Shown piece by piece: positions 8,736 to 46,382 of a stretch of 64,000 bases of DNA (the stretch's first letter is position 1; each line of letters opens with the position of its first letter). The notes under the pieces are model-generated. The model saw only the letters and a program-made list of their open reading frames with translations. It was not told where the DNA came from and made no database searches. The stretch lies in contig CAXBMO010000017.1 of assembly GCA_963977015.1 (NCBI GenBank), positions 64,001 to 128,000 on the forward strand, read 5' to 3'. This DNA is from an uncultured bacterium (GTDB taxonomy: Bacteria; Verrucomicrobiota; Verrucomicrobiia; Verrucomicrobiales; DEV007). The position numbers and the translations under genes were made by a program.

Positions 8736-8824
8736 CAGGGCTCGTTCTCATCGTTGAGACCCGAAACTGACTCAGATTGATAATTTTCATAATAAAATGC
8801 AATTATAAGGTTGCCGCGCCTCTG

Positions 8825-8843
8825 GATTATGATAATTATCAAT
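8825..8843. promoter_or_regulatory. Fur-family-like box in an AT-rich promoter
   Basis: GATTATGATAATTATCAAT matches GATAATGATAATCATTATC at 14/19; perfect core palindrome TGATAATTATCA; related site TGATAATTTTCA at 8778-8789. Confidence 0.45.
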
Positions 8844-8880
8844 AACTTAGTCATTCAGAACTTAGAAACGGTCTCTCAAC

Positions 8881-9930: not shown

Positions 9931-9983
9931 CGTTTGGGGTCCGTGGGGGTTCCGAATTATAGGAAACGATCGTTTTACCTTAG

Positions 9984-11300
9984 ATGAACCTACCCGAAGA
10001 GCCGTGGCGGCTTTCCGCCTCTGAACTGGCAAACCTGGATCAAACCCACATTTGGCATCCGTTCACCCAGATGGCGGATTGGTGTGCGGATTCCCATGAG
10101 CCGCTCGTCCTCGCCAAGGGCAAGGGCGCCCGCGTAACCGACCTCGCCGGACTGGAATACATTGACGGGAATTCGTCGATTTGGACGAACATCCACGGCC
10201 ACAATCACCCGACGATCACCGCTGCGATTCGCGATCAGCTTGATCGCATGGCGCACAGCTCCTTTCTCGGCCTCACCCATCCCAACGCCGCAGTTCTGGC
10301 GCGGGAACTCGTGGCTCGAGCGCCGGGAGACTCTCTCACCAAGGTCTTTTTCTCCGACAACGGTTCGACCGCGAACGAAGTCTCCCTTCGCATGTCACTT
10401 CAGGCTCGCGCCCTGCGTGGCGAAACTCAGCGCACCCAGTTTGTCGCGTTTGATCAGGCGTATCATGGAGACACCGTCGGCGCGGCGAATCTGAGCGGGA
10501 TCCCGTTGTTCAGCGCCCCGGTCGCAGCTCCGTTTCCGCCGGTAACGCGAGTTGCCAATCTGGAGGAATTGGTCTCGCTCGGAAGCGACTTCGCCGAAAC
10601 CGTCAACGCGGTCATCATCGAGCCATTGGTTCAAGGTCCGGCCGCGATTCGTCCGTGGCCGAAAGGGATGTTGCGCGGATTGGCGGATTGGTGCGAAGAA
10701 CACGGCGTGTTTCTGATCCTCGACGAAGTCCTCACCGGATTTGGCCGGACCGGAACCCTCTTTGCCTGCGAGCAGGAGAATGTCGTGCCCGATTTCCTCA
10801 ATCTCGCCAAGGGAATCACCGGCGGATATCTGCCACTGGCCGTCACGCTCACAACGCAAACGGTCTTCGATGCCTTTCTCGGTGGTGCTGACAAGACCTT
10901 CTACTACGGCCATTCCTACACCGCGAATGCGGTGGGTTGCGCAGCGGCGCTGGCTTCGCTCCAGGTTTTCGATGACGAGGACGTTCTCGCCAACCTTCAG
11001 CCCAAAATCGCGGAACTAACCACGGGCCTGGCCAATCTTTCGGCCCTGCCGCAGATTTCTGAGATTCGGCAATGCGGCTTCATGGCCGCCCTCGAAGTTC
11101 AGGGGATGACTCCGACAGCGATTGAGATGGAGAACAGGAACCAACTCGGAGCAGCAGTCTGCAACGCGGCTCGCGACTTTGGGCTCCTGACCCGCCCGGT
11201 CCGCAACGCCGTCGTCTTGATGCTTCCGCTTTGTGCAACGAGCGAGGAAATCAGTGCCGCTTGCGCCGCCATCGGCCAGGGCATCGCCCAAGTTTGCTAG
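9984..11300 (+). CDS. bioA: Adenosylmethionine-8-amino-7-oxononanoate aminotransferase
   Basis: IWHPFTQM, DGNSSIWTNIHGH, FFSDNGS, YHGDTVGA, DEVLTGFGRTG, LAKGITGGYLPL, GHSYTAN. Confidence 0.93.
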   Translation: MNLPEEPWRLSASELANLDQTHIWHPFTQMADWCADSHEPLVLAKGKGARVTDLAGLEYIDGNSSIWTNIHGHNHPTITAAIRDQLDRMAHSSFLGLTHPNAAVLARELVARAPGDSLTKVFFSDNGSTANEVSLRMSLQARALRGETQRTQFVAFDQAYHGDTVGAANLSGIPLFSAPVAAPFPPVTRVANLEELVSLGSDFAETVNAVIIEPLVQGPAAIRPWPKGMLRGLADWCEEHGVFLILDEVLTGFGRTGTLFACEQENVVPDFLNLAKGITGGYLPLAVTLTTQTVFDAFLGGADKTFYYGHSYTANAVGCAAALASLQVFDDEDVLANLQPKIAELTTGLANLSALPQISEIRQCGFMAALEVQGMTPTAIEMENRNQLGAAVCNAARDFGLLTRPVRNAVVLMLPLCATSEEISAACAAIGQGIAQVC

Positions 11301-11504
11301 GGGGTGTTTGAAAATGAGGTCGAGACGCGCTGCGAGTGATTTTGTCGACTGGGAATGATGGCTCGGGGCGGCGATGAGCCTTCTCACAAAGCCCCGAACA
11401 GCATTTCCAGGCGGGAAAAGCGCCGCATCTCAAGATCATGCGAAGCCAATCTTCGAAAAAGAGGAACAACTTGCGCGTCCGTCATCATTTTAAAACGCTC
11501 CCTA
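11298..11504. mobile_element. MITE-like element with terminal inverted repeats, full copy
   Basis: Left end TAGGGGGTGTTTGAAAATGA; right end TCATTTTAAAACGCTCCCTA; right half recurs at about 48598-48704. Confidence 0.7.
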
Positions 11505-14500
11505 AGACGCCAACGCTTCGTCTTCTTTTTCAAACGGACGCTTGTACCAGGCCCACGACCACGCGATGCCCCGTTTGATGTCTTCCAGGATCATGTAGCT
11601 GACCGGAACGAGGATCAACGTGATCGCCGTCGCGAACAGAATCCCAAAACCGAGCGAAATCGCCATCGGAATGAGGAACTGGGCCTGGGTGCTTGGCTCG
11701 AAGAAAATCAGGGGAATGAGCCCCGCAAACGTCGTGAGCGAGGTTAGAATGATCGGTCGAAAACGGGCCGTGCCGCCCGTGCGAATCGCTTCCAACAACG
11801 TTGCTCCCTCTGCCCGTCGCCGGTTGATCCAATCCACCAAAACCAGACTGTCGTTCACCACGACGCCACTCAAGGCGAGCATTCCGAACAGGCTCATTGA
11901 ACTCAGCGGCATATCCGGCATGGGATGATTCGTGAGGTAGCGGAGTTTCTCGATGAAGATGTGGCCGGCAATCGCCCCAACCAGGCCAAATGGAATCACC
12001 ATCATGACCATGAACGGCTGGAGCCAGGATTTGAAGGGAATCGCGAGGAGGCAATAAATCACGAAGAGGACGAAAATGGTTCCAGACACGAGAACCTGCT
12101 GCATTTCGCGAGCTTCCGCCGCCTCACCTTCCTGGCTGTAGCTAACGCTGGGAAAGGGTGCCAGAATTCGCTCCATATCCTCGTTGATGGCCGCTTTGAT
12201 CGCTCCCAGGTCGACCTTGTCCTTGTCGGCATCCGCCTTGATGTTGACGGTTCGTTGACGGTCAACCCGACTGATTCGCGCCGGACTTCGGCCAAACTCG
12301 ACTTCGGCAACATTCGCAAACGGAACCCTGGCGCCATCCGGAGTCCGCACCCGCATCTCATTCAAATTGGGCAGGCTCTCCCGTCCATCCGGCGGGTAGC
12401 GAACCATCACCCTGACGTCATCCCGACCGCGTTGGATGCGCTGCGCCTCAAATCCGAAAAACGCGCCCCGCGTCTGGCGCGCCAGATTCTCCGAATCGAT
12501 TCCCAGCAGCTGGGCTTCAGGCTTCACCTGCAGCTGAATCTCCTGCTTCCCATCATCCACGTTGCTTGCGATATCGAACAATCCGTTGAACTCCGCCAAC
12601 CGTGACTTCACCGCCACCGCCGCGCCTTCCAGCTCAGCTTCGTTCAACCCGGAAAGCTGAACATCAATCGGATCACCATAACGACCAATCTCTGCCTTGA
12701 TGTTGAAATCCTCCGCACCGGGGATTTGCCCAATCATGCGCCGCAACTCCATCGAGATGCTTCGCGGCGTGACGTCGAGGAGGCCAAGCTTCTCCCGAAT
12801 CTCGCGATCGACGACTTCCAGGCTCAACTCCCCGACATGACTTTGCCCTGAACTCAAACCACGGCTGCCACCGGGTCCCCCGGTTGTCGCGATCCCCTGC
12901 CCTCCCGTGGAGCTGAAAATGTGACTGATGAGCGGACTCCCATCGGGGCCGACGTACTTTTTCTGCAACTCGAAGGCCGCCGCCTCCATCCGGTCGACAT
13001 GGCTTTTGGTGACTTCGAAAGGGGTCCCGATCGGCATGTCGAGGCGAACCGTCAGGTACTCACTGGCGACGCGTGGAAACCAGACATAGCGGATGCGTCC
13101 ACTCTTCCACCACGCCAGTGAAACCATCAGAATCACCACGAACGTGGCGAGAACAATGAAGCGATTCACGATACAGCGTTGCAGAAACGGTTGATAAATC
13201 GACGCGATAAACCACTCCAATCCGTTCGCCACTTTCTGTTGAAGGCGGAGCAGCCAATTCCATTTCCCAATGTTGGTCGCCGCCTTCTTCATGTGCTTCA
13301 GGTGAGCGGGGAGAATCAGCTTCGATTCGATGAGCGAAAAGATCAGCACGGGAATGACGACGGCGGGGATACTCCGAAAAATCGCGCCACGATGCCCGGG
13401 AATCAGCATGACGGGGATGAAGGCCACAATGGTGGTCAGCACGCCGAAAATCACCGGCCGAGCGACCTCACGCGTTGCTTCAATGGCGGCCAAGGTTGGG
13501 TCGCCATCTTCATCATTGCGCATTCGGGTAAAGATGTTTTCTCCCGTGACGATGGCGTCATCGACCAGAATCCCGAGCACGAGAATGAAACCAAACAGGC
13601 TGACGATGTTGATGGAGGTATTCGTCAGCGGCATGCAGATAAACGCACCGCACAAGGCGACCGGAATTCCCAACATGACCCAGAATCCCAGCTGAAAACG
13701 GAGAAACAGGGAGAGAATGATGAACACCAGGATAAAGGCCCCCACCCCGTTTCGAACCAAGGTGTCGAGACGGGCTTGAACCAGGTTCGAGCGATCCCGC
13801 CATGTTTCGATCGAAACGCCCTGGGGCAGGCTGTTGCGCCGTTTTTCAACAAAGTCGCGAACCGTATCGGAAATGATGATCGCGTTTTGCTCGCCGACGC
13901 GTTCCACCGAAATCAACACCGACGGCTTGCCGTTGAAACGCGCCACCACCTCGTTTTCCTCGAACCCATCGGTCACCACGCCCAGGTCACGAACCCGCAC
14001 CTTGGTTCCGTCCGGATTGGAACGAACAACGATGTCTTCAAAATCCTTCCCCACATAGGCTTTGGACTTGGTGCGAAGCAGGATCTCGCCACCCGCAGTC
14101 TTGATGGTTCCCCCCGACAAATCGACCGATTGAGCCGAAACCGCAGCCGCAACTTCTCCCAACGTCAGGTCGTAGCGAAGCAACGTTTCTTCGGGAACTT
14201 CAATCGCGATTTCGAAAGGCCGCACCCCGATGATCGTGGCCGAGCTCACCGTCTCGGTCTTGCTCATGGCCTGAAAAACCGAGCTGAAGACCGGCAATTT
14301 GTGGAGCGGGATCCAACGCGGCATTTCAACCGTCGAAGACCCGACGAGACCGACGATTTCGTCCCGAAGACTGTCGGCCAACTCTCGAAGCTGAGCTTCC
14401 TCCAAATCGCCGTAGACGAGCACCTTCACGACACTGTCGGTAAATTGCTGCAGCGAGACGGTCGGTATCTCGGCTTCGAGCGGAAACGTCACAATGGCGT

Positions 14501-19345: not shown

Positions 19346-19987
19346 CTATGGCTGAAACTCTTCGGATCTCTCATTCCATTCCCAAAGAGTGGACAAAAGA
19401 GCATCTACTCCGCCTACCGAACCCATCGAGACGCTAAATGCTGTCGTGGAATTCAGATAGTGTTGTGATATTCGATTCAAAACACTATCCAACGCAGTCA
19501 ACGCTTCCCTGATTTTCTGTCTAGTCGTCTCGGGTAGTGGTTCCGTTCTTCTCCCACCAACTAGCGGCATTTCCCGATGCGCCAATCGCCTATTCCTCCT
19601 CACCCTAGCGAATTTGCATTTCTCGATTGCATTCTCCACTAGCGTATCCACTTCATTTTTCAATTTCCTGTCAGTAATATTTCTGGAGAACCTCTTCACT
19701 GTCAGCGTTTCGTTCCCTGCGACCGTAACATTGTCAGTTATTCGACAAATATGGAGGACCACATCCTCTATCATCATTCTCTGAGTGTTATGAAAAAATG
19801 CCGGCGCAACCTTGTTAAGTAAATTGATAACTTCGGGCGTGTCCGCAAACAGACTTTCGTAGTCGTTCCACTTTAGATGAATCCAAGTAAGCTGATTTCG
19901 AAGGTCATCGTACAGTTCTCCGAGGTTCTCGCCCATCTGTGCGATGCACTCTTCCCTTATTTCTTCTGGTGACTTTATCCTGCTCAT
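19346..19987 (-). CDS. HEPN-domain protein, AbiU2-like
   Basis: RNRRLAH fits the RX4-6H HEPN motif; LLNKVAPAFF and VLHICRITD pattern; DNA visibly more AT-rich than its neighbours. Confidence 0.7.
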   Translation of the reverse strand: MSRIKSPEEIREECIAQMGENLGELYDDLRNQLTWIHLKWNDYESLFADTPEVINLLNKVAPAFFHNTQRMMIEDVVLHICRITDNVTVAGNETLTVKRFSRNITDRKLKNEVDTLVENAIEKCKFARVRRNRRLAHREMPLVGGRRTEPLPETTRQKIREALTALDSVLNRISQHYLNSTTAFSVSMGSVGGVDALLSTLWEWNERSEEFQP

Positions 19988-20197
19988 CACATTGTTGCCA
20001 AAACGCAAGGATCTGAAAATCCTCCTCAGTCCTCGCTTATTCCCTCACTAAAGCAGAATTCTGTCAGCCTGCAAAAACCATTAAGGAATTCTTGACTTTA
20101 AGGATTTTTGAAACTAGATCTGCGGCCGCAGCGAAACCGGCAATCATCAAATCTCAAATTCAATAGGGCAATCGACGCGTTGATCCATTGATCGTCT

Positions 20198-25051: not shown

Positions 25052-26578
25052 TTAATCCAAAACGTCTCGACCCGGTTCCGGTTTCTTCGTAGGTGGCGGC
25101 GCGGGTTTGCTTTCAGGCAACGGCTTGGTGGGAACACTCGAATACTTGGTGAAGAGATAGATGTGAGGAATATGCGGAAGTTGAGGCTCCACCAAAATGG
25201 ACTCGCGCCCAACCCTGGAAGGATCGACATGCTTCAAATGATGGGAAACCTCATAGAACTGCCCACGGTGCGACCTCGCCCAACGCTCGACCGCGGGCAC
25301 GACTTTGGGGTCCGCGGTTTTGGGAATCTCGGCCTCGGCTGCGGTGGCCAATGTGTCCAAGCGGCTTTCAAGAGCGGTGGCGTGAGCCTGGGTCTTTGCA
25401 AAGGGCACAAAACGATCCGACGCAAAGTCGTAGTCTTCAAACCGGCGTTTGATCTTCACCGCTTCCGGAACTGATGGCATAAACGTTCCCTTTTCATCAG
25501 GACTCCACGGCGCCCAACCATTCGGAACCCCGGTTCCCCCTCCCAGGGAGTTGGCCAGATCCCGCGCCGCGATGTAGACGTCAAAACTGTCGGGCGCGAC
25601 GTGGAAATAGATGTAGTTGCGATTGTTTGAAATGGTCTTGAAGGCATTGACCAGAGGCGAACCTGCGGAGCGAAACTCGCTGATCGCCATTCCTCCGTCC
25701 GGCCGCGGCACAAAGGCCAGTTTCAACCTGTCGCGATCAACCGTGACCTGGTATTCAACATCCTTGGTTCCCAACTTCCCGGCGTTGGACTTGAAATAGG
25801 AAGCAACCTTGGCGGAATCATAGCGTAACTTCTTCAGCGCTTTTCCGTCACGATTCACAATCGACTCATAGCCTCTTCCGTCCCGTCGTTCTTTGTCACT
25901 TTTGAACGAGTAGGTATAAGATCCCGCTTCCCCACCGGAATATACCAGATCGTCAAAGTTGCTGTCCACCAAGTCGCGAATCTTGAACGCATGCTGATAG
26001 ATATCACCGACATAATAGAGTTTTCCGAAGACGCAGAGAACGTAGCGCGGCTCGGCGGCTTCCGGGGCGGTCCTCGGATTGGGCAGCATGACGACGGTCG
26101 GGGCCGGGCCCTCATCCGACATCGCGACTTCGAGTTTTTTTCGCAACTCGGTCAGTTCATCAACCTTGATCTGGTTTTCCGTCGATTGAGTCTCCTTCTT
26201 TTCCTCCTCGGTCTTGATCGCCAGCTCGATGGCCTTGAGTTTGTTCTGCAGATCATCAACTGACTCGTCGGATTTCAACGCTTCCAATTGGAGCTCCAAC
26301 TCTCTTTTCTGCTTGTTGATTTCGTCCAGCGAGCGGTTTTGCGCCAACGCACTCTTCAGATTCGCCTTGTCTTCCAATCGCTTGTCGCGAGTCAATATAT
26401 TCGCCTGCAACTCTTCCGGTGAGACCGGCTTGAGTTCGGAAACGATGCGATCCACCACATCGCTCATGCTGATGCTGGTGAGAATAAGAACAAGGAGCAG
26501 GATCCCGACCACGTTCGTCAACGCATCGAGCAACGAGTCCATGTTCGCTTCTTCATCTCCTTTGTTTCGGCGGGCCAT
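25052..26578 (-). CDS. Single-TM coiled-coil protein with an ExbD/MotB-like anchor
   Basis: MARR...DSLLDALTNVVGILLLV (Asp in TM), coiled coil, then a YFHVAPDSFDVY ExbD-like module. Confidence 0.6.
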   Translation of the reverse strand: MARRNKGDEEANMDSLLDALTNVVGILLLVLILTSISMSDVVDRIVSELKPVSPEELQANILTRDKRLEDKANLKSALAQNRSLDEINKQKRELELQLEALKSDESVDDLQNKLKAIELAIKTEEEKKETQSTENQIKVDELTELRKKLEVAMSDEGPAPTVVMLPNPRTAPEAAEPRYVLCVFGKLYYVGDIYQHAFKIRDLVDSNFDDLVYSGGEAGSYTYSFKSDKERRDGRGYESIVNRDGKALKKLRYDSAKVASYFKSNAGKLGTKDVEYQVTVDRDRLKLAFVPRPDGGMAISEFRSAGSPLVNAFKTISNNRNYIYFHVAPDSFDVYIAARDLANSLGGGTGVPNGWAPWSPDEKGTFMPSVPEAVKIKRRFEDYDFASDRFVPFAKTQAHATALESRLDTLATAAEAEIPKTADPKVVPAVERWARSHRGQFYEVSHHLKHVDPSRVGRESILVEPQLPHIPHIYLFTKYSSVPTKPLPESKPAPPPTKKPEPGRDVLD

Positions 26579-26592
26579 GGTGAGTCTTTCGG

Positions 26593-27426
26593 TTATTTCA
26601 TCAGGTTCTCAAAATAGCTGAGATCAATCTCGCCCTCACCGGGAAGGGGGAGCTTGCCAGCTCGAAAATTGGATCGTCGCGCGATGTTGGCGGCATACGT
26701 ATTCACCACCGAATTGGCTTTCGTGTAAGCGGCAATGGACTGCGGATTGTTCCTCACCAGGAACACGATCTGCGTTCGCGGATTGGCGTCGATGAAGTCG
26801 AGAAATTTGCGGAACTTTTCGTCGGTGTTGAGCGTTGCGGTCGACAGCTTCACCGGCTCCTCCCCTTTCCTCATGATCGAAATGGTTTGAGCCGATGCCT
26901 CGATGAAATAGGGCACCAAATTCCGTCCCGAACCCGCGGGGCGAACCTGGATCGGAGGCGCCTGATCCGCAGGTTTCTCCTGCGCGGCGAGTTTCTTCTT
27001 CAGCTCCTCGATATCGAGCAGCAGTTGCTGATACGACGTCAACAGACTTTCATTGTCGACTTTGAGTTGTCGCAGCTTCGCGTCTTTCTCGGCCAAACTC
27101 CCTTCCGTCTCCTCCACATTCTCCATGATCTCGCGAAGCCGGTTCTTCTCGGTCATGGCGAAGGTCAATTCGTTGACCGATTTCGAGATGGTGTCGAGCA
27201 ACTGACGAAGCTCATCATTCTGCTTCTTCAGCTCCTCGCTTTCGGCGAGAACTTCCTTGTTTTGCTCTGAGCGGTCCTTTTCCTCCGGCTCAATATCATC
27301 CGCCTTTTGCAGCTGGATAATCGCCATCCCGGAAATGATCACGACCAAGGCCCCGATGAGCGCCGCGAGGATGCTCAAAAACGGGAACAGAGAAATCGTA
27401 GTTCCGCTATCTTTGCGTCGTCCCAT
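26593..27426 (-). CDS. Second single-TM coiled-coil protein, ExbD-like but without the TM Asp
   Basis: MGRR...ISLFPFLSILAALIGALVVII, coiled coil, C-terminal IVFLVR...GKLPLPG domain. Confidence 0.6.
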   Translation of the reverse strand: MGRRKDSGTTISLFPFLSILAALIGALVVIISGMAIIQLQKADDIEPEEKDRSEQNKEVLAESEELKKQNDELRQLLDTISKSVNELTFAMTEKNRLREIMENVEETEGSLAEKDAKLRQLKVDNESLLTSYQQLLLDIEELKKKLAAQEKPADQAPPIQVRPAGSGRNLVPYFIEASAQTISIMRKGEEPVKLSTATLNTDEKFRKFLDFIDANPRTQIVFLVRNNPQSIAAYTKANSVVNTYAANIARRSNFRAGKLPLPGEGEIDLSYFENLMK

Positions 27427-27460
27427 AGGGTTTGAAGTGCGGAGTCAGGCTAGCGCCGGA

Positions 27461-28972
27461 TCATCCAAATGGCCACATTTTCTTCTTCACCACCACTTGC
27501 TTGCCGTTCAGCTCCTTCAGCACGTTGTTCAAATTGGTGATTCCTTCCGCCAGGTTCTTCACACTGCCGGAAATGTCTTCGTCCAACTTGGATTCGTAGC
27601 CTTTGGCGCGATCCTCGATCGCGGAAAGCTGCTTATCGACTGCTTCCGCCACCGTTTGGTAGTGCTCGGTCTGCTTGTCGTAGACCTCTTTCATGTTGCC
27701 ATGAATCTCACCGAATTTGCCAACCACATCCTTGTTGCTGGCCGAAATGGCCTCGCCAAGTGACTTCAACGCGGCCGAATCCGTGAACTGACCACCGGCA
27801 CCACCATCGTTGAGGCGCTTGATTAGGTTATCATTGCTGTATTCGTCTACCAGGTTCAGCACGTCTTCCTCAGTCGCCTGAAGAGAACTGGCCGGAATCA
27901 TCAGCAAGATACTGAAAACGAGGGCAAGGAACGTGGTATCGAACGCCGTTCCCAAACCGCCCAGAACAGTTTGCAGGCCACCCATCATCGCTTCGGGATC
28001 CGAGGCGTTGGCCAGGGTTTCCGCAAAGCTTCCGATGGCGCCACCGATACCGAGAACGGTTCCGATGAATCCCATGATCGGGATCGCCCACAGGAAAACC
28101 TTGGCCTGAGCGTAACTGCTGGCAATTGAGTTCGCGTCAATGTCCGACTGCGAAGACATCATCCCGGCAACCTCGCTGTTGCTCTCCCGAACGTAGAAAT
28201 ATTCCAACCCCTTGCGTAAGCGCTTGTGCATGAAGCTGTCATGCAATTTGCGGGGCAGATTGATCACATGGTCGTAGAAATCCGCCACATTGTACATGTT
28301 GATCTCAGGGCTGATATCCTGAGGCAAGGCATCGAGAAGCATGGCTCGGCGCTGCTTCTTAATATGAACCACTTTCAAAATCAGGATTCCCAATGTCCAT
28401 CCCGCCAATCCGGTGGTGACGAACTGGACCCAACTCCGCTCGATAAAGAGCTGGTAAAGGTAGTTCGCGGGTTTGTCAGGAGTGCTGGGACTGTCTGACA
28501 GAAAGATTGCCATCATGACCACCCCCGCGATTCCCAATCCGATGGCCAGCGACAACCAAAAGCTCACCTGGGCAATGTTCCCCAGGGTTCCGGTGTAGAA
28601 ATATTCGATGGGCCGGGGAGCTTCGTCAGAGATCTGGTGCTCCAGAGTCTGTTCGTGCGTTTGCTCTTCCTCCTCGGGTTCCGGAGCGGACTCCGTCGTG
28701 GGCGCAGGTGCCGAAGTGGCTCGGCCAATTCCCAAATTAGGCGGCGGAATGGCCGGCGAAGTATCCGGAGACGGGATGCTCGGCTTTGGAATCGATGGAG
28801 CGGGAGGCTCAGCAGCGCTGGGCGCGGGAGGAGCGGCCGCACTCGATGCGGGAGTCCCCGGTGCCTCCGGGATCTTGATCTTGGCACTACAGCCAGGACA
28901 CTTCACGGTTTTGCCGGCCGAATCCGCTTCGGCCTGCATTTGAACGCTACATTTTGGGCAGCTAAATCTCAC
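27461..28972 (-). CDS. MotA/TolQ/ExbB proton-channel protein with N-terminal zinc ribbon and Pro-rich linker
   Basis: CPKC-x16-CPGC, P/A-rich linker, four TMs including WAIPIMGFIGTVLGI and GLGTAFDTT, helical C-tail. Confidence 0.85.
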   Translation of the reverse strand: MRFSCPKCSVQMQAEADSAGKTVKCPGCSAKIKIPEAPGTPASSAAAPPAPSAAEPPAPSIPKPSIPSPDTSPAIPPPNLGIGRATSAPAPTTESAPEPEEEEQTHEQTLEHQISDEAPRPIEYFYTGTLGNIAQVSFWLSLAIGLGIAGVVMMAIFLSDSPSTPDKPANYLYQLFIERSWVQFVTTGLAGWTLGILILKVVHIKKQRRAMLLDALPQDISPEINMYNVADFYDHVINLPRKLHDSFMHKRLRKGLEYFYVRESNSEVAGMMSSQSDIDANSIASSYAQAKVFLWAIPIMGFIGTVLGIGGAIGSFAETLANASDPEAMMGGLQTVLGGLGTAFDTTFLALVFSILLMIPASSLQATEEDVLNLVDEYSNDNLIKRLNDGGAGGQFTDSAALKSLGEAISASNKDVVGKFGEIHGNMKEVYDKQTEHYQTVAEAVDKQLSAIEDRAKGYESKLDEDISGSVKNLAEGITNLNNVLKELNGKQVVVKKKMWPFG

Positions 28973-29852: not shown

Positions 29853-32822
29853 CTACTTCGCAGCAACGGTTTCCTCTTCCCACTCGCGATACATCCCCCG
29901 GTATTTATTCTCCAGTTCATCAACCCGGCGGGATTGCTGCTGGATCTCTCCTTCCTGGCGTTTCTTCAACTCCAACGCCTTCTTTAACTCGGCCTCTTTC
30001 TGAAGCTTCGCTTTTTCTCGATCGGAGATCATTTGGGGAGCTTTCGTCACCGTTTCGGTGGCCTGGGTCAGACGCTTGGTGGTTTCCTCAACCTTTTTGT
30101 AGGTGGCTGCGAGCACTTTCTCGAATTCCGGCGCCTTCGCATCTGGCTCTGCCAGGGACCGCGCCGCAACCAACTGCAGCGCGACTTCCACAACATCGTC
30201 AGATGCGGTGTCCAGCAGTTCGGTGGTTTCTGCAATGGTCTTTTGGGCGCCCTCCAAGGTTTTCTTTGCGTCTTCCACGGCCTTGGCGGCCGCCTCTTTT
30301 TGAGCGATGGCCTGCTGTGCCTGCCCTTCGACGCTCATCAGGCGTTCGTGATAATTTTCGAGTGTTTCCTGCTCTTTGTGGAGCACGACATTGACTTCTG
30401 CAGCAGCCCATTTGTCGACTTGATACTGCATGAACGCCAAATCAAACTTGGCCTGCTTTGCATCGTTCTGGGCCTTCGTCTGGGCCGCAACGAGTTGATT
30501 GTAGCGGTCGGTTGCCGCTTTGGCAGCCGCTTCTTTGGCCTTGATCGCCGCATCCGCACCGGCCAGAACCTTTTTCGCGTCTTCAATCCGCTTTTGAGCA
30601 TCGGCAACATTCTTCTTGGCTGCGTCGACCTTGGCTTTGATACCTACGAGTTCTTTCTTCACAACCTCGGCATCTTTTTCAGCCTGCGGCATCGCTTTCT
30701 TCTCAGCCTCATCGGCGACTTTCTTTTGCTCTCCAATGAGGAGTTGGGCCACTTTCAGTGATCTCTCTCCCTCAACGACCGAATTCTTGGCGTTCATGAG
30801 CCCGGCTTCGGCGTTTTTCAGCTTGTTTCCAATGTCCCGGCGCTTCGCGTCAGCCGCCTTCATCGCGCCATCCGCTTTGGCAAATGCGGCCTTTGCTTCG
30901 GACAGAGCTTTTTGAAAATCCTGATTTTCAGGAACTTGCTCAACCTGGAGCTGCAACCCTTTGACCCGGGCTTCAAGATCGACCCGATTCTTTACGGCCT
31001 GCTCATACTGCTGCTCGGCGACCGGAAGATCCTTACGACCCTGCGCGATCTGCGCGGTGAGTTGGCCCGCCAATTCCTTCTGCTTCGCAATTGCCGCCTC
31101 CTTGGCTTTGGCATCATTGGTCAACGCCGCCAATTTCTGATGTTCAGGCGTGTTTTTGGCGGAATTCAGTTTCGCCGCCACTTCAGCATTCTTTTTGTTA
31201 TACTCGCCCTCGGCGGCTTTCACGGCGTTGCCAAGGTCTGCCAGCGTCTTGCCGGCACCTTTGACAACTGAATCCGCATCTGCTTTTTGCTTTTTCACCG
31301 CCGCGACTTGTGAATTGGCATCATCGCGAGCCTTTTTTCCTGCATTGGCCGCATCCGCGGCTTTCTTGATCGCCGCCTCAAGCGCGGGCAAATTCTTGGT
31401 GATTTCAGCAACGCGAAGCTTCGAGTCCTCCATTTGCTGGGCAATGGTCGGCGGATTGCTGATCAACTCACCAATCAGTGTGCCATCCTCGGCGTTCCAA
31501 ACCTTGAGTTGACCGTTCCAGTCCCCGCTAATGACCTTCTTATTGTCAAAGGTGAAGACGACCGAGGTCACAACGTCCGTGAACTCCTTGATTTCGCGGA
31601 GAAGCTTTCCGTTCAGATCCCAGATTTTCACGCGGTTATCGCGGCCTGCTGTCGCGATTTTCGATCCATCGGGAGAGAAGTCGATCGCCAGGGCGCCACC
31701 ACCATGAGCGGCCCATTTCTTGATCTGCTTTCCATTCTGCATTTCCCACAAGGAAACGTTTCCATCTTCGCTCGACGCCCCGACAACGTTCGAATCACCT
31801 CGCCAGCTAATTCCGGTGATCGCCTGTTGGTGCTCTTTCAATTCGTAGAATTCCATTCCAGCCTCAGCTTCCCAAACATAGAGACCACCATTGCGTCCTC
31901 CCGTGGTCAGCAACACGCCATCAGGACTGTATTCTGCTTCCATCAACCAATCCGGATGCTTCTTGATGGAGTGAAGCTGCTCGCCCGTCGTGGTATCGAA
32001 GATTTTGATATTCCGACCGGGGCCACCCAGCGTTACGAACTTGTGATTCGGACTGATATCAGCCGCCAGCGCGGTATCGAATTCGCGCCCGACTTCAACG
32101 ACCCGATCTCCGGTTTCGACATCCCAAGCGACCGCTTTCCCTGATTTGCCACCTCGTCCCCCGCCGGCAATCAGCAATGACCCATTGGCGCTGAAGGAAA
32201 CCGTCTCCGGAAATCCTTCTTCGAACGGCAAGATTCCCAGGAGCTCGAGGCTGTCGGAGTTGTAAAGAATGACCTGCTTTTGCCCACCAATCGCAACCAA
32301 AGGCGCCCACGGGCTTGCCGCAATCGCCGTCACGGCATTTCCTCGCGGAGTCACGACCGTCGGCTCCAGAAGGAGATGCTCCGGCATGGCCGGATCTTCG
32401 GGTTTTCCACCCACTTCAACGGTTGACGCAATCGTTGGGGCGCTCGATTTTTTGGCCTTGCTGTTCGTGGTCTCAAGCAGTCCGCCCTCAATCCACTTTT
32501 TCATCATCGCGAGATGTTTGTCCTCCGATCTGGGCTTGTTCGGTGGCATCTTCGGCTCATCGGTGTGCGCAGTCAGGGTGTAGAGTCGGCTACTGTCGGG
32601 GTTGCCTGCCTGCACAACTTCTCCTCCTGATCCGCCCGCCATCATGGCTCCATAACTCGTCAAATCCAAACCTCCCTTGGCCTCGTCCGGATTGTGACAG
32701 TTCAAACAAGCACTTTCCAGGAAGGGCATGACGTGATCCACATAGGTGATCTTTTCCTGGGCGTTGGCGCTCCCCAACGCAATCGATAGGGCAAATAGAA
32801 TGAGCGATGTGTGTTTTTTCAT
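29853..32822 (-). CDS. Exported planctomycete-type cytochrome c + WD40 propeller + long coiled-coil protein
   Basis: Signal peptide ANA|Q; CLNCH...KGGLDL...KMPP...KWIEGG; about 7 WD repeats; about 500 aa A/K/E/Q-rich coil. Confidence 0.88.
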   Translation of the reverse strand: MKKHTSLILFALSIALGSANAQEKITYVDHVMPFLESACLNCHNPDEAKGGLDLTSYGAMMAGGSGGEVVQAGNPDSSRLYTLTAHTDEPKMPPNKPRSEDKHLAMMKKWIEGGLLETTNSKAKKSSAPTIASTVEVGGKPEDPAMPEHLLLEPTVVTPRGNAVTAIAASPWAPLVAIGGQKQVILYNSDSLELLGILPFEEGFPETVSFSANGSLLIAGGGRGGKSGKAVAWDVETGDRVVEVGREFDTALAADISPNHKFVTLGGPGRNIKIFDTTTGEQLHSIKKHPDWLMEAEYSPDGVLLTTGGRNGGLYVWEAEAGMEFYELKEHQQAITGISWRGDSNVVGASSEDGNVSLWEMQNGKQIKKWAAHGGGALAIDFSPDGSKIATAGRDNRVKIWDLNGKLLREIKEFTDVVTSVVFTFDNKKVISGDWNGQLKVWNAEDGTLIGELISNPPTIAQQMEDSKLRVAEITKNLPALEAAIKKAADAANAGKKARDDANSQVAAVKKQKADADSVVKGAGKTLADLGNAVKAAEGEYNKKNAEVAAKLNSAKNTPEHQKLAALTNDAKAKEAAIAKQKELAGQLTAQIAQGRKDLPVAEQQYEQAVKNRVDLEARVKGLQLQVEQVPENQDFQKALSEAKAAFAKADGAMKAADAKRRDIGNKLKNAEAGLMNAKNSVVEGERSLKVAQLLIGEQKKVADEAEKKAMPQAEKDAEVVKKELVGIKAKVDAAKKNVADAQKRIEDAKKVLAGADAAIKAKEAAAKAATDRYNQLVAAQTKAQNDAKQAKFDLAFMQYQVDKWAAAEVNVVLHKEQETLENYHERLMSVEGQAQQAIAQKEAAAKAVEDAKKTLEGAQKTIAETTELLDTASDDVVEVALQLVAARSLAEPDAKAPEFEKVLAATYKKVEETTKRLTQATETVTKAPQMISDREKAKLQKEAELKKALELKKRQEGEIQQQSRRVDELENKYRGMYREWEEETVAAK

Positions 32823-38194: not shown

Positions 38195-39928
38195 ATGAGA
38201 TCGGCCATTCTCCAGATCCTCAGTGATAGTGGTTGCACGGACGTGAACAAAGTTCGCGACTTGGCTCGCACGTCCTCTCAGGGCCTTTCTTCGCTGAACG
38301 AGTCCATCCTTTCGGCTGATCTGGTGGAGGAGGAAAATTTCCTGGAGAAGGTGAGCCACCACTTCAAGATGGATTGGCTACCGGAGCCAGAGCCGGATCT
38401 CGATCAACGAAAAGCCCTTCAAAAGGCCTGCAAAGCCGGGGTGGTCGTTCGACACCGCATTCTTCCAATCCGATTTGAGGGGGATCCTGACGATTCCTCC
38501 GCCAAACTCATCATCGCAACGTCCGATCCTTTCGATGTGGTAACCCGCCAGATGGCGACGCGAGAGTTTGCCTATCCCCTGCGCTGGGTGTTGGCGCCGC
38601 AAAAAAGAGTCCTGGAAGGAATCCAGGCGCTTTATGGCGTTGGGGCCGATACCTTCGAAGCCATTCTGGAGGGAAGAAGCGATTTTGACTCCAATTCTGA
38701 TCTCAAAGAGGAAACCACGGACCTCGATGAGAACGATGCCGAGGCTTCGGTCGTCCGATTTGTGAACGACATCATTCGTGATGCCCTGAACCAGCGCTCG
38801 ACGGACATCCATTTGGAGCCGTTGAGCCATGACTTGAGAATTCGCTACCGAATTGACGGAGTTCTTCAGGAAGTTCCGGTTCCGGAGCAAATCAAGACGC
38901 TTCAGTCTTCCGTCATTTCCCGGCTCAAGGTCATGGCTCGCCTGGATATTGCCGAGAAGCGAAAACCACAGGACGGCCGGATCGCGTTGCAACTCGACGG
39001 CAGATCGATCGACGTCCGGGTCGCCACCATCCCATCCGTAGAAGGGGAAAGCATCAGCCTCCGATTGTTGGGACAGGAATCCTTCAGCCTGGATCGACTG
39101 GGATTGATCGAGGCTCACCAGAAAACGATCGACCAGTTGCTGAAAGAGCCAAACGGCATCGTTTTGGTGACGGGACCAACGGGTTCGGGAAAATCGACAA
39201 CGCTTTATACGTTCCTATCAGCTCTCAATGATGGCAGTCATCGTATTGTCACGGTGGAGGACCCGGTTGAGCACAAGTTGCCGGGAGTCATCCAGATCGC
39301 CGTGAAGCCGGACATCGACCTGACTTTTGCCGCCGGATTGCGAAGCATTTTGCGGGCAGACCCGAACGTCATCATGGTGGGGGAGATTCGCGACCTCGAA
39401 ACGGCGGAAATCGCGATTCGATCCGCACTGACCGGTCACCTGGTTTTCAGCACGCTTCACACCAACGACGCCATCGGCGGAATTACCCGCCTCGTTGATA
39501 TGGGCGTTGAGCCTTTCCTCGTCGGAGCATCAGTCCGCGCCTTCATCGGCCAGCGTTTGGTCCGCCGCCTCTGCCCGGATTGCCGGGTTCCCGCCAATTA
39601 TTCGACCCCTGAACTTGATACCGTGGAGTTTCCGTCAAATCTGCGGACGGACGGGAATCTGCACACGGCCAAGCCCGGCGGGTGCAAGTCCTGCCGTGGA
39701 ACGGGTTACCGTGGGCGCATCGCTATTTTCGAGATTTGCCGGATATCCGAAGCCCTCCAAGATCTGATCGTCGGGCAAAAACCGTATGCCTCACTCCGTC
39801 GGCAAGCCGAGGCGGAGGGATTCATTTCGATGCGCCAGTATGGCTGGATGAAAGTCGCGGAAGGCGAAACCACGTTGGAAGAGGTTGTGAGCGCGACTGC
39901 GGACGAACGAAACGCCGGTCCCAAGTAG
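38195..39928 (+). CDS. gspE: Type II secretion ATPase
   Basis: TDIHLEP, RKPQDGR, VTGPTGSGKSTT, TVEDPVE, ILRADP, STLHTND; CPDC/CKSC zinc site. Confidence 0.93.
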   Translation: MRSAILQILSDSGCTDVNKVRDLARTSSQGLSSLNESILSADLVEEENFLEKVSHHFKMDWLPEPEPDLDQRKALQKACKAGVVVRHRILPIRFEGDPDDSSAKLIIATSDPFDVVTRQMATREFAYPLRWVLAPQKRVLEGIQALYGVGADTFEAILEGRSDFDSNSDLKEETTDLDENDAEASVVRFVNDIIRDALNQRSTDIHLEPLSHDLRIRYRIDGVLQEVPVPEQIKTLQSSVISRLKVMARLDIAEKRKPQDGRIALQLDGRSIDVRVATIPSVEGESISLRLLGQESFSLDRLGLIEAHQKTIDQLLKEPNGIVLVTGPTGSGKSTTLYTFLSALNDGSHRIVTVEDPVEHKLPGVIQIAVKPDIDLTFAAGLRSILRADPNVIMVGEIRDLETAEIAIRSALTGHLVFSTLHTNDAIGGITRLVDMGVEPFLVGASVRAFIGQRLVRRLCPDCRVPANYSTPELDTVEFPSNLRTDGNLHTAKPGGCKSCRGTGYRGRIAIFEICRISEALQDLIVGQKPYASLRRQAEAEGFISMRQYGWMKVAEGETTLEEVVSATADERNAGPK

Positions 39929-39929
39929 A

Positions 39930-41156
39930 ATGCCCCAGTTTTACTACGAAGCGATTCAACCGGATGGGAGCAAGGTCAAAGGAACGGCCGAAGCTTCCAA
40001 TCGCGGTGAGGCAATGCAGTCTCTCAATGCGCAGGGACTTCAACCGTTCGTTCTCAAGGACAGTCAGGCGAAGCCGGGAACCTCGACTCCCACTTCCGAT
40101 AACGGGGGACAGATTCGACTTCGCAATCGCGACGTCATTGAATTCACCGAGGAACTTGGCGATCTGCTTCACGCTGGCCTGCAATTGGAACCGGCTTTGG
40201 GGGCAATGGCGGAACGCGATGACCAATCCGCGCTCAAACGGGTGATTGATCGCAGTGTCGAATCGCTTCGCGAAGGCTTGAGCTTTTCCGAGGCTCTCAG
40301 CAAGGCGTCGCCGAGTTTCGGCCCGATGTATTGCTCGCTGGCTCAGGCCGGGGAAGTCAGTGGCTCGCTGCCGAAGATTCTGCGCCGCCAGGGCGAACAT
40401 CTCAAAGTGATTCAGGAATTGCGATCCAAGGTCGTTACCTCCCTCACCTATCCGGCATTTCTTCTGATTTCGGGAATCGCGCTCTGCATTCTCTTCATGA
40501 CGTATTTGATTCCGCGGCTCGCCGAGATGTTGGACCGAAGTGGAGCCAAGCTTCCACCTCTCGCCTCGGCGCTCATCGCCATCAGCAACTTCATTCGTGA
40601 AGACGGACTCTTGGTCCTCGGAATTCTTGCTGTTGTCGGCGTGGTTGGCTGGCGCCTCCTCTCGTCCAAGGCATTTCGTCCCCACTGGGATCGAATTCAG
40701 CTAAAGCTGCCGTTCGTCGGCCCATTGCTCACCATCTACTTTCAGGTTCGCTTTCTTGAGACCATGGCCAATCTGCTGCAGAACGGAATTCCGCTTCTCA
40801 GAGCCTTGGAGTTGGTGCAGAACTCCTCCCAAAACCTCTTCATCCGGGAGAAACTCGCCAAAACCGTTGATCAAGTGACCGATGGAATGAGTCTGTCGCG
40901 CTCGCTCCAGCAATCCGAGTCATTTCCCAGACAATTGACGGACATGCTTCGAATTGGTGAGCAATCCGGGCAGCTTGGAGAAAAGCTGAGTCGAATCGCC
41001 GAAAAGTACGACCGGGAATTCTCGCAGAGGATCGCAAATATCAGTGCACTAATTCAACCTGTTATTATATTAATGATGGCAGTACTTGTAGGAACCATGG
41101 CTTATGTCATGATTTCTGTAATATACGACACCGTCTCGACCCTGCGTTCGCGATAA
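39930..41156 (+). CDS. gspF: Type II secretion inner-membrane platform protein
   Basis: Two GspF repeats (AGEVSGSL, IGEQSGQL), TYPAF TM, C-terminal TM. Confidence 0.92.
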   Translation: MPQFYYEAIQPDGSKVKGTAEASNRGEAMQSLNAQGLQPFVLKDSQAKPGTSTPTSDNGGQIRLRNRDVIEFTEELGDLLHAGLQLEPALGAMAERDDQSALKRVIDRSVESLREGLSFSEALSKASPSFGPMYCSLAQAGEVSGSLPKILRRQGEHLKVIQELRSKVVTSLTYPAFLLISGIALCILFMTYLIPRLAEMLDRSGAKLPPLASALIAISNFIREDGLLVLGILAVVGVVGWRLLSSKAFRPHWDRIQLKLPFVGPLLTIYFQVRFLETMANLLQNGIPLLRALELVQNSSQNLFIREKLAKTVDQVTDGMSLSRSLQQSESFPRQLTDMLRIGEQSGQLGEKLSRIAEKYDREFSQRIANISALIQPVIILMMAVLVGTMAYVMISVIYDTVSTLRSR

Positions 41157-41186
41157 CGATTTCAACTCTGATCCCTATCATTCCGG

Positions 41187-41624
41187 ATGAAAACTTCAAT
41201 CAATCCCCCCTCAAGTAACACCCAGTCAGCCATGACACTGATGGAGATGATGCTGGTTCTGGCGATCATTGCGCTCCTTCTGGGATTGGGTGCCTTCAAG
41301 ATGAAGAACGTTCTCTCTGATGCTGACGTGACCGGTGCAAGCGCCGACGTCGAGAACATTGAGACCAATCTGGTCCGCTACAAGGCCAAGGCGATGTTCT
41401 ATCCTACCGAAGAACAGGGGCTCATTGCATTGGTTGAGCCTCCCACCAGCGGGCCGAAGCCAAGGACCTGGACGCAATGCCTCGAAAAGGAGGCCCTCAT
41501 TGATCCCTGGGGAAATCCCTATCAATATCATTATCCTGGGCGAAAGAACTCAGACAGCTATGACGTCTACTCGATGGGACCAGACGGGAATCCAGGCACC
41601 GAAGACGATATTGGGAACTGGTAG
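41187..41624 (+). CDS. gspG: Major pseudopilin
   Basis: A|MTLMEMMLV, YPTEEQGL, DPWGNPYQY, YSMGPDG...DDIGNW. Confidence 0.95.
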   Translation: MKTSINPPSSNTQSAMTLMEMMLVLAIIALLLGLGAFKMKNVLSDADVTGASADVENIETNLVRYKAKAMFYPTEEQGLIALVEPPTSGPKPRTWTQCLEKEALIDPWGNPYQYHYPGRKNSDSYDVYSMGPDGNPGTEDDIGNW

Positions 41625-42069
41625 TCAGCCGCGCCAACCGGCCGCGTTTACGCTGCTGGAGGTCGTCATCGTCATCTCGATTATGATGGTGTTGATCGGA
41701 ATTGCCGCAGTCAGCTTCCGGGGCCTCGACCAAGAGCAGGTTCTCACTCGTTATGCCGTCGATATTCAGGACCTGGCAGGCCAGGCGCGACGCACCGCAA
41801 TCTCAGAAGGTAACCCGGTTTTTTTGCAGGTTGGAACCAGCGCCGTTCGCGCTCGGGACTACCAACTTCCATTTGCCGATTGCACCCTGGAGGTTCGCCG
41901 CTGGGGGAGCACCAAGTGGGTCTCTCCCGCCAATTTTGCGTGGCGGTTTGAGCCCAACGGCGTTTGCGAGCCCATTGGACTGCGAGTGATCCGAGGCGAC
42001 GCTTCTTACGAAATGCAGTTTCATCCGCTCACCGCGATGCCGCAGGAAGAACGATTATGGATTCCGTAA
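41611..42069 (+). CDS. gspH: Minor pseudopilin, GspH-like (TTG start inferred)
   Basis: A|FTLLEVVIV N-methylation motif, ARRTAI, FEPNG; follows gspG. Confidence 0.75.
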   Translation: MGTGSQPRQPAAFTLLEVVIVISIMMVLIGIAAVSFRGLDQEQVLTRYAVDIQDLAGQARRTAISEGNPVFLQVGTSAVRARDYQLPFADCTLEVRRWGSTKWVSPANFAWRFEPNGVCEPIGLRVIRGDASYEMQFHPLTAMPQEERLWIP

Positions 42070-42476
42070 GCCCCAACCTTCGCCGTTCCCGGAATACCGG
42101 CGTCGCCTTGCTGGAAGCGATGCTGGCGTTGGCCGTTTTTGGGCTCGTCACGGTTTCCCTGGTCGGGGCCCTTCGCAGCATGAGTCTTTTGACGATCGAA
42201 TCCGCGCAGGAAGCTCACGCGGTTCAAGCAATGCGAACCCTGATGGAGCAACAACTGCATTCCCAGGAAGTTGAGCCGGGCGTGACGCGAATCGGGCCTG
42301 ATGAGTTGGGAGTGAGCTATCAGGTCAACATCAATCCTGAAGTCTCAATCATCGATGGGAATGGCATTGCGCTTCCAGATCTCTACCAAATTGAAGTGAT
42401 TGCGGCCTGGAAAGAAGGAGACCGAACCCAATCTCGCCGCGCTGAAACCCTCAAGAATGCCCTGCTCTATCCATAG
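42057..42476 (+). CDS. gspI: Minor pseudopilin, GspI-like
   Basis: G|VALLEAMLALAVF motif; size and gene order. Confidence 0.7.
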   Translation: MDSVSPNLRRSRNTGVALLEAMLALAVFGLVTVSLVGALRSMSLLTIESAQEAHAVQAMRTLMEQQLHSQEVEPGVTRIGPDELGVSYQVNINPEVSIIDGNGIALPDLYQIEVIAAWKEGDRTQSRRAETLKNALLYP

Positions 42477-43113
42477 ATCGAATCAGTCCGGATTTACCCT
42501 GATTGAAATTTCTCTGGCGGTCGCCATCACCGGGATTTTGCTGGCCGGCGTCTATCAGGTTGCGCGGACGACCTTTGAACTGAGCAGTGACGTCAAACAG
42601 GTTCAGGCGCTCGAAACCACGCGGACGGCGTTCGTCGATTTTGTTCGTCGCGAGCTTCGGCATTTGCCGGCGGAAGCAGGCCTCACCCATCAGGTGGAAC
42701 TCAACGATGACAAGGCCTTCTCCGCTTTAACCGTCGAAGGCGCACCCACGGCGTTTGGATTTGGAGCCGCAGCCGGGTTCAAGCGGATTGAACTCGTTTC
42801 CGAACCCGAATTGGGAGGAACGCTCCGGGTCCTGCTTCGCTACCATCAAGAGGATTTGCTCAACCCGCTGGAGCTCCCGCTTCTCCAGAATCTGACCACG
42901 TTTGAGTGGCAATTCTATGATTCCAGCCTCGGTGAATGGTCACCCATCTGGATCAATCCCGGTCGCCGCCCAAGTCAGATCGAGCTGTTGCTCGGTTTCA
43001 GCGGTGAAGCTCCCCGTCGCTACGTATTCTGGAGCCCACAGATAATTCCGCCACAGCTGTTGCTCGATTTGCGCGATACGACCCCACCTCAAGAAGAGGA
43101 GGAACAACCATGA
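42457..43113 (+). CDS. gspJ: Minor pseudopilin, GspJ-like
   Basis: G|FTLIEISLA; FYD..W..W..RP..IEL C-terminal pattern. Confidence 0.78.
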   Translation: MPCSIHRSNQSGFTLIEISLAVAITGILLAGVYQVARTTFELSSDVKQVQALETTRTAFVDFVRRELRHLPAEAGLTHQVELNDDKAFSALTVEGAPTAFGFGAAAGFKRIELVSEPELGGTLRVLLRYHQEDLLNPLELPLLQNLTTFEWQFYDSSLGEWSPIWINPGRRPSQIELLLGFSGEAPRRYVFWSPQIIPPQLLLDLRDTTPPQEEEEQP

Positions 43114-46304: not shown

Positions 46305-46382
46305 CTAAAAACCCTGCCGATCAACGGGTGACATTTGTCTTGCGACATTAGGAATTCATCTTAATGTTAAGACATCTTTACT

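Follow-up and report, generated by a model that had tools for sequence, protein, structure and literature searches.

In the solved motors of the MotA/ExbB/TolQ 5:2 type, the axle is a homodimer (as described in PMC11946911 and PMC9389320), and the Asp residues of its two chains alternate (PMC11946911). Axles made of unlike chains are not unprecedented, and in the accounts given by PMC9389320 and PMC12204202 each chain of such a pair keeps its Asp. The AglRQS system of Myxococcus xanthus has one TolQ/MotA-like channel gene and two different TolR-like genes, and a heterodimeric axle has been predicted for AglR5-AglQ-AglS (PMC11761067). Similarly, the Planctomycetota-Verrucomicrobiota-Chlamydiota (PVC) bacteria are described as having tolQ operons that contain a heterologous pair of tolR-like genes (PMC12204202, section 8). 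Here we analyze an operon of three genes, termed A, B1, and B2, that fills positions 25052-28972 on the minus strand of a 64,000-nucleotide stretch of DNA, referred to as the window (contig CAXBMO010000017.1, positions 64,001 to 128,000), from an uncultured verrucomicrobial bacterium of the DEV007 lineage. The closest known systems are AglRQS, ZorAB of Zorya, TolQR/ExbBD, and GldLM. Unlike AglQ and AglS, which both retain the membrane Asp (PMC9389320), one of the two B proteins of this operon, B1, has a Ser in its place.

The gaps between the genes are short, 34 nucleotides between A and B1 and 14 between B1 and B2. An earlier note, made from the DNA letters, had drawn attention to the three-gene span, to the domain layout of A, and to the contrast between DSLLD in one B protein and FPFLS in the other; the open reading frames (ORFs), Pfam, and alignments bear out all three. 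All three are genuine genes that selection maintains, with homologues numbering in the hundreds, and their public names are generic for A and 'hypothetical' for B1 and B2. The note also called the operon the best candidate for an uncharacterized system in the window, and a full-text search of the literature, with supplements outside its scope, found no description of the operon. The available part of a survey of MotAB relatives (PMC12505986) makes no mention of a zinc ribbon or a coiled coil. In our judgment the chances are about even that the triad is a self-contained motor of the 5:2 type in the inner membrane, driven by ions (most likely protons), whose axle would be a heterodimer of B1 and B2.

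The triad is conserved as a unit. When 185,579 species genomes were scanned for the pattern of the B1 helix, 348 species proved to have a relative, and the best 80 loci were fetched. Wherever the contig leaves room, A almost always lies upstream of B1 (75 of 77 loci) and B2 downstream of it (72 of 75), and the order A-B1-B2 recurs in both Verrucomicrobiota and Planctomycetota, the two phyla across which the earlier note had proposed that conservation be checked. The flanking genes are housekeeping genes that differ between lineages. In the trees of all three genes, Planctomycetota fall on one side of a single branch (support 100/99 for B1, 99 for A, and 82 for B2), a split that fits vertical descent from the common ancestor of the two phyla and not the spread of a mobile defence island. 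Two bins titled 'uncultured Klebsiella sp.' (L039 and L058) nest within the Limisphaerales clade of the B1 and A trees, and their titles are probably wrong.

B1 and B2 are paralogues from the membrane helix to the head. Aligned as profiles with hhalign, they match over 250 columns at 99.2% (E 7.6e-20), in a register that sets P15-F16-L17-S18 of B1 opposite S15-L16-L17-D18 of B2 and so pairs Ser18 with Asp18. P-F-x-D is the frame of the ExbD/TolR membrane helix. At the position of the essential axle Asp of ExbD, TolR, and MotB, B2 has an invariant Asp18, within the motif DSLLD, and B1 has Ser18, within a membrane helix that contains FPFLS and no acidic residue. Asp14 and Asp18 are kept in all 67 B2 proteins encoded at the fetched loci and in all 23 database matches. 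In a 35-row alignment of B2, D14, S15, D18, and N22 never vary, and conservation of T21 is at least 90%. D14, D18, and N22 follow each other at intervals of one helical turn, and the corresponding residues of B1 are F14, S18, and A22, so that one chain of the presumed pair holds both carboxylates.

This asymmetry, which the earlier note had also marked for checking, is typical of the family. A profile search of 1.84 billion representatives yields 351 representative clusters of B1 at E<=1e-30. Among the best 150 of these, position 18 is Ser in 134, Asn in 1, and Asp in only 12, with 3 lacking the N-terminus, so that homologues of the second subunit do not usually have the Asp; B2 always does. 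Likewise, among the 120 B1 homologues listed, 119 have Ser and one (P0090) has Asp. The 12 Asp-bearing members of the B1 family read PFLD, and in 3 of them Pfam ExbD (PF02472) is detected below threshold over the N-terminal helix (16.9, 13.9, and 10.8 bits against 25.4; best E 0.0071). In a FastTree phylogeny with 9 B2 sequences as outgroup, the Asp forms nest within Ser clades at no fewer than five places, several of the nodes being weak. On this tree Ser appears to be the ancestral state of B1, and recurrent exchange of Ser and Asp at this one site fits a position that faces the ion path. An ancestral Asp in B1 followed by a single loss was considered and rejected, since the Asp forms are scattered inside Ser clades, again with the weakness of those nodes in mind.

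Subunit A belongs to the channel family. It matches Pfam MotA_ExbB (PF01618) above the curated cut-off (31.2 versus 22.9 bits, E 2.1e-7, residues 246-373), as do all nine A homologues scanned from other loci, and the ESM Atlas places it in MotA_ExbB clusters. Its 823 homologues are labeled solely 'MotA/TolQ/ExbB' or 'ExbB/TolQ'. Across 20 aligned homologues drawn from the two phyla, P298, G301-F-I-G-T305-V, and A343-F-(D345)-T346-T347 of the core are invariant. P298, G301, G304, T305, T346, and T347, present in 20 of 20, correspond to what we take to be the pore-lining hallmarks of the MotA/ExbB/TolQ family, a Pro/Gly-x-x-Gly-Thr helix and a last helix that bears Thr. A ring of Thr is described as surrounding the axle Asp in the pores of the MotA/ExbB superfamily (PMC12204202, section 8).

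Further features of A lie on either side of this core. Its N-terminus forms a zinc ribbon whose four cysteines, C5, C8, C25, and C28, are invariant in the 20 aligned homologues. Every one of the 69 full-length A ORFs at the fetched loci has the pattern CxxC...CxxC, the remaining 7 of the 76 matches ending at contig edges. The N-terminus of the A-family profile weakly matches a solved structure, that of the zinc ribbon from the gliding protein GltJ/AgmX (7zok_A, E 0.0072), and a search with the single sequence gives weak matches to the ribbons of LysW and RpoP; apart from the GltJ ribbon, searching the PDB with the A profile returned mostly helical-bundle noise. Some gene callers choose Met12 as the start, and the Atlas record of A, which begins there, loses the first CxxC (window 28939-28972). 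Because the ribbon is conserved in all full-length homologues, the upstream GTG start is supported.

A second membrane helix is followed by a basic stretch, KKQRR, within a basic loop of about 85 residues that separates helices 2 and 3; by positive-inside reasoning, this loop probably lies in the cytoplasm. Together with a ribbon that is predicted to be cytoplasmic, these basic residues point to a four-helix topology for A in which both ends would be inside. ExbB and TolQ have three membrane helices, and A would thus differ from them in having four, with the N-terminus inside. Beyond the core, the helical tail ends in a conserved tip, L.EGI.NLN.VLKEL.GKQVVV.KK.W.F, and varies in length from about 110 residues here to about 650 in Limisphaerales relatives. 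The A proteins of the Limisphaerales type (L058:7122-9956, L079:7106-9961, L039, L060, and L063) are 780-951 residues long, and their tails carry a long, internally repetitive helical insert with the conserved tip unchanged.

The earlier note had described the B genes as two single-helix, coiled-coil genes. Each protein does have one membrane helix and a helical stalk, and the description is refined by models in which the heads are folded as well. The AlphaFold2 (AF2) model of B1, with a mean predicted local distance difference test score (pLDDT) of 87.3, consists of the membrane helix, the stalk, and a confident alpha/beta head; that of B2 (mean pLDDT 84.5) follows the same plan, with an alpha/beta head after the N-terminal membrane helix and the stalk, which in each model measures about 100 residues. 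The B1 stalk shows heptad periodicity, with a hydrophobic repeat of 3.5 residues. In both phyla, the spacer from helix to head is about 157 residues in B1 (150-163) and about 149 in B2 (143-167), and over 67 pairs the stalks average 105 and 106 residues, respectively. In this respect the operon resembles GldLM/PorLM of type IX secretion and gliding, a 5:2 unit whose axle is a long dimeric shaft that spans the periplasm (PMC8986121, PMC9389320). GldM, however, is a homodimer, and sequence kinship is undetectable beyond a chance-level match of the A tail to GldL (6ys8_G, E 0.12).

For the B1 head, the top Foldseek match in the PDB is TolR (5by4; E 6.9e-3, probability 0.98, template modeling score by target 0.51). 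RuvC/YqgF-like folds, which are RNase-H-like, score close behind, and the periplasmic domain of ExbD (8pek) ranks 27th. The core strands and helices of the B2 head align with those of the B1 head in the hhalign comparison. There is no convincing Pfam or NCBIfam family for either protein, profile searches of the PDB with the B1 and B2 alignments returned coiled-coil noise only, and the ESM Atlas clusters of B2 contain only entries named 'hypothetical protein', from the same two phyla. Finally, a C-terminal Asp is present in 66 of the 67 locus-encoded B2 proteins, as LD in 60, ID in 3, and VD in 3, and the last 45 residues have a median Pro content of 29%. This Asp-ended C-terminus looks like a docking peptide, and it is a candidate site for binding a partner. 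The features of the three genes are collected in Table 1.

Table 1. Genes and protein segments of the A-B1-B2 operon, with positions in the window and the basis of each assignment
Feature	Window positions	Strand	Basis and remarks
Gene A	27461..28972	-	ORF, 503 residues, GTG start; MotA/ExbB-like channel subunit that bears a zinc ribbon and, at its C-terminus, a helical tail
A residues 1-36, N-terminal zinc ribbon (C5, C8, C25, C28)	28865..28972	-	Cys alignment; predicted cytoplasmic
A residues 37-125, flexible tether, Pro-rich then acidic	28598..28864	-	Gapped and length-variable in the A alignment
A residues 133-204, first two membrane helices	28361..28576	-	Hydrophobic segments, predicted from sequence
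A residues 246-373, MotA_ExbB core with last two membrane helices	27854..28237	-	Pfam, invariant columns
A residues 374-503, cytoplasmic helical tail with conserved tip	27464..27853	-	A alignment, C-termini
Gene B1	26593..27426	-	ORF, 277 residues; Asp-less TolR/ExbD-like stalked subunit
B1 residues 12-38, membrane helix with SLFPFLSIL motif	27313..27393	-	Alignment; Ser18 codon 27373-27375 at the canonical Asp position
B1 residues 47-148, single long periplasmic helix (stalk)	26983..27288	-	AF2, pLDDT mostly >90
B1 residues 171-275, periplasmic alpha/beta head, TolR-like	26602..26916	-	AF2 and Foldseek
Gene B2	25052..26578	-	ORF, 508 residues; Asp-bearing B1 paralogue with enlarged head
B2 residues 14-22, polar stripe at the start of the membrane helix (D14, S15, D18, T21, N22)	26513..26539	-	35-row alignment
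B2 residues 54-154, periplasmic helical stalk of B1-like length class	26117..26419	-	AF2 helices 54-80, 84-100, 104-154
B2 residues 170-480, large periplasmic head	25139..26071	-	AF2, pLDDT mostly >90; B1-like core plus insertions
B2 residues 481-508, Pro-rich tether with [LIV]-Asp carboxy-terminus	25055..25138	-	C-termini of locus-encoded B2

A motor built from these parts might work as follows. A would form the channel ring, presumably a pentamer, with its tethered zinc ribbon and helical tail in the cytoplasm, and the N-terminal helices of B1 and B2 would together make the axle within that ring. The protonatable groups of the axle (Asp14, Asp18, and Asn22) would all come from B2, with B1 giving Ser18. 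Ion flow would then turn ring and axle relative to each other. The paired helices of about 105 residues would make up a shaft of about 15 nm (our own estimate, at 0.15 nm per residue) that bears two unequal heads, the small TolR-like head of B1 and the large head of B2, toward the cell wall and outer membrane. Force could be passed by this shaft and by the Pro-rich, Asp-terminated tail of B2 to a putative partner in the envelope, and the zinc ribbons and tail of A may serve as cytoplasmic handles that place or regulate the motor.

A bolder version of this proposal, which we offer tentatively and regard as rather doubtful, is that the motor is obligately asymmetric with a 5:1:1 stoichiometry, B2 carrying the whole proton relay and B1 being permanently neutral. 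In such a machine, the shaft of about 15 nm would be rigid, and the Asp-ended tail of B2 would be docked on an outer-membrane partner; the whole would be an ancestral machine of Planctomycetota and Verrucomicrobiota that does the envelope job done elsewhere by Tol-Pal. Tol-Pal is described as largely reduced in Planctomycetes (PMC8871954).

Several observations weigh against the proposed motor with its B1-B2 axle. To carry the acid groups on one axle chain only is a departure from every solved 5:2 motor. Neither B1 nor B2 reaches the Pfam ExbD (PF02472) cut-off or matches that family at E<=0.1, and B2 has no structural look-alike in the PDB (Foldseek with the whole model, best E 0.042). The range of stalk lengths in B1 and B2 is too narrow for co-variation to show (Pearson 0.40, Spearman -0.13), and the stalks have no charge complementarity, both being net acidic with means of -4.5 and -11.3; a comparison of heptad phases gave no discrimination. 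In addition, the triad is broken in four loci with room for it: B1 stands alone in L001, B1 and B2 are found without A in L059, and A and B1 lack an adjacent B2 in L069 and L074. In L001, which holds the closest named relative (B1 75% identical, on a 658-kb contig), B1 at 9959-10834 has an M48-like peptidase gene on one side and a ceramidase-like gene on the other, with neither A nor B2 within 10 kb.

A co-fold of full-length B1 with B2 scored 0.56 (runs of 0.56, 0.65, and 0.56, against 0.00 for the best of 3 controls), with contacts that agree by at least 77% between runs and a partner pLDDT of at least 73, and is classed as weak support. The pass mark is reached by 116 of 157 solved complexes and by 2 of 215 mismatched pairs, and passing scores at or below 0.60 are seen for only 18 of the 157 solved complexes, together with both of the passing mismatches, all of these counts being approximate since our own alignments were used. 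The pass is a weak one and, given that ExbD/TolR dimers have been solved and that B1 and B2 are paralogues, may reflect family likeness only. Furthermore, because B1 and B2 are paralogues within a family that forms dimers, the co-fold does not separate a heterodimer from two homodimers.

The latter ambiguity bears directly on an alternative that we consider unlikely but serious, namely that a B2 homodimer forms a two-Asp axle (A5:B2x2) and that B1 is either a swap-in, non-conducting axle used for parking or regulation or else a transducer at the edge of the ring, like TolA or TonB. Such an arrangement would have the homodimeric axle of all the solved 5:2 motors (PMC11946911, PMC9389320), would suit a B1 that is so commonly without the Asp, and is as compatible with the co-fold as a heterodimer is. 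The plan of B1, a helix, a long helical domain, and a globular head, is also like that of the three-part TolA and TonB (PMC12204202, section 8), and the arrangements in L069, L074, and L001 indicate that the two B genes are separable. Yet over its full length B1 is paralogous to B2 and not to TolA or TonB, and none of 35 aligned B1 sequences has a His in the membrane helix, so the SHLS-type His that TolA and TonB are said to use (PMC12204202, section 8) is missing. B1 instead keeps the ExbD-like P-F-x-[S/D], and the reappearance of Asp at that very site in the tree is what would be expected if the site faced the pore. Moreover, the two stalks are matched in length, and the order and spacing of the genes suggest equimolar co-expression. 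Taken as a whole, the earlier interpretation, which had allowed for either an asymmetric motor or interchangeable B dimers, is partly supported.

The two other alternatives are both quite improbable. In one, the operon would be a Zorya-like sensor in which B1 and B2 are anchored in the envelope, and A with its cytoplasmic tail, spun by the flow of ions, reports damage to the envelope, such as that caused by phage, to cytoplasmic effectors encoded elsewhere. ZorAB is indeed a 5:2 motor, ZorA has a long, helical, cytoplasmic tail at its C-terminus (PMC11946911), and the variable length and conserved tip of the A tail recall it. The ZorA models of PADLOC are the best match to A in a defence library; they match 18 of 20 A homologues from the third and fourth membrane helices into the tail, the ZorA2 model PDLC00635 being the best (E 1.1e-12), and a ZorB3 model weakly matches the B1 helix (E 0.0048). 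However, ZorA models are the sole MotA-like models that PADLOC contains, so this match does not discriminate, and the NCBIfam model ZorA_4, whose cut-off is 500 bits, gives A only 16.8. In Zorya, which requires the ZorC/D effectors, ZorB is homodimeric, each chain contributing its Asp26, and has a peptidoglycan-binding domain. In contrast, the B pair here is unequal, and neither B1 nor B2 has an OmpA-like or other peptidoglycan-binding domain (Pfam, E<=0.1). No ZorC/D/E or nuclease gene is a neighbor, as judged by Pfam in the window and 10 loci and by PADLOC for 4 operon and upstream proteins. The lineage-specific housekeeping flanks and the three trees that follow the phyla are also unlike a mobile defence island.

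It is just as improbable that the triad is a static scaffold or ruler spanning the envelope, of motor origin but with a degenerate ion path. This would fit the loss of Asp from one axle copy and a stalk length that is nearly constant across two phyla, as expected of a spacer. Nevertheless, the pore-lining motifs of A and Asp14, Asp18, and Asn22 of B2 are invariant across those same phyla, which argues for an ion path that has been maintained.

If the triad is a working motor, it differs in several ways from its better-known counterparts. With TolQR-TolA and ExbBD-TonB it shares the channel family of A, the P-F-x-D frame in the B proteins, a head on B1 whose best structural match is TolR, and, presumably, the job of carrying inner-membrane energy across the periplasm; in the present operon, however, the long periplasmic reach belongs to the B subunits, one of which lacks the Asp. 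No partner of the TolA/TonB type, tolB, pal, or TonB-dependent receptor gene is adjacent in the window or in 10 scanned loci (Pfam). AglRQS differs in that its B proteins are without stalks of about 105 residues. Its partner GltJ has, at the N-terminus, a flexibly linked zinc ribbon that acts as a protein-binding switch (PMC11135422), a module that is found on a separate protein there and on the channel subunit itself here; no glt-type genes are seen flanking the operon in the window or the 10 scanned loci (Pfam). The PVC tolQ operons are alike in coming from the same phyla and in having two unlike axle genes, and TolQ-like genes with paired vWA 'transpore-helix' proteins offer a case in which force transduction falls to the axle proteins (PMC12204202, section 8). 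A TPR gene and vWA proteins are part of those systems, with an Asp on each transpore helix (PMC12204202), whereas no vWA or TPR gene was found with the operon by Pfam, and the heads of B1 and B2 are TolR-like or unmatched.

The surroundings of the operon are ordinary chromosome. A Pfam scan of 41 window ORFs, with weak matches listed at E<=0.1, identifies DnaE and an RND pump, sugar-acid enzymes immediately downstream of the operon, and upstream a DinB-like gene and a gene for a PSCyt1-WD40-coiled-coil protein. Among these 41 ORFs, there are no TonB, TolA, flagellar, or Zorya C/D/E proteins, in agreement with the earlier note, which had reported such genes and an OmpA-like domain to be missing here. 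The PSCyt1-WD40 gene (29853-32822, minus strand) encodes a secreted protein of 989 residues in which a planctomycete cytochrome c domain is combined with a WD40 propeller and with a coiled coil of about 500 residues; it lies upstream of the operon on the same strand, an adjacency that is not kept in other loci. A scan for promoters and terminators gave no more than shuffled sequences did (2 versus 2.7 expected and 4 versus 6.6 expected). Elsewhere in the window, 9 kb from the operon, a cluster on the plus strand (38195-48584) resembles those for type II secretion or type IV pili and contains a GspE-type ATPase, GspF, pseudopilins with an N-methyl motif, a type II secretion system K-like protein, and a secretin (Pfam). 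A HEPN protein of the AbiU2 family (19346-20008, minus strand; Pfam, E 1.6e-23) is encoded amid housekeeping genes and is a candidate for abortive infection.

A fourth gene of the system was sought by all-against-all clustering of the ORFs within 10 kb in the 80 loci and the window, together with Pfam searches of 12 cluster representatives and 70 neighbors. No such gene is common across the phyla, with the one exception of a gene for a BamB-like PQQ_2 beta-propeller, which accompanies the operon in 14 of the 80 loci, in both phyla (L005, L008-L011, L013, L014, L019, L021, L023, L032, L033, L069, and L074), including both of the Planctomycetaceae loci without an adjacent B2 (L069 and L074). The largest further cluster of ORFs occurs in 33 of 80 loci and is divergently oriented. 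In the locus of the cultured Kolteria novifilia Pan216 (L051), where A is at 7992-9737, B1 at 9938-10822, and B2 at 10871-11953, a VgrG-like protein with Phage_GPD, Phage_base_V, and Gp5 C-terminal domains is encoded just upstream of the operon on the opposite strand (4626-7394, minus), and it was not seen in the other 9 loci of the same scan.

The operon is of interest for what it may say about the motor family and about the bacteria that carry it. The solved members of the superfamily (MotAB, ExbBD, TolQR, GldLM, and ZorAB) have identical axle chains that use their Asp by turns, and rotary models rest on this alternation. In the present family, which is kept in two phyla, one axle chain is without the Asp and the other has two of them; this amounts to a natural experiment that asks whether one protonatable chain is enough. 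If true, a 5:1:1 motor with a relay carried by B2 only would step in the 5:2 manner on one leg. One operon would also unite features known apart, the tethered zinc ribbon of gliding, the cytoplasmic tail of Zorya, and the shaft-like axle of type IX secretion motors. In Planctomycetota and Verrucomicrobiota, whose envelope biology, division, and surface organization are poorly understood, it appears to be an ancestral and as yet unstudied machine of the cell envelope.

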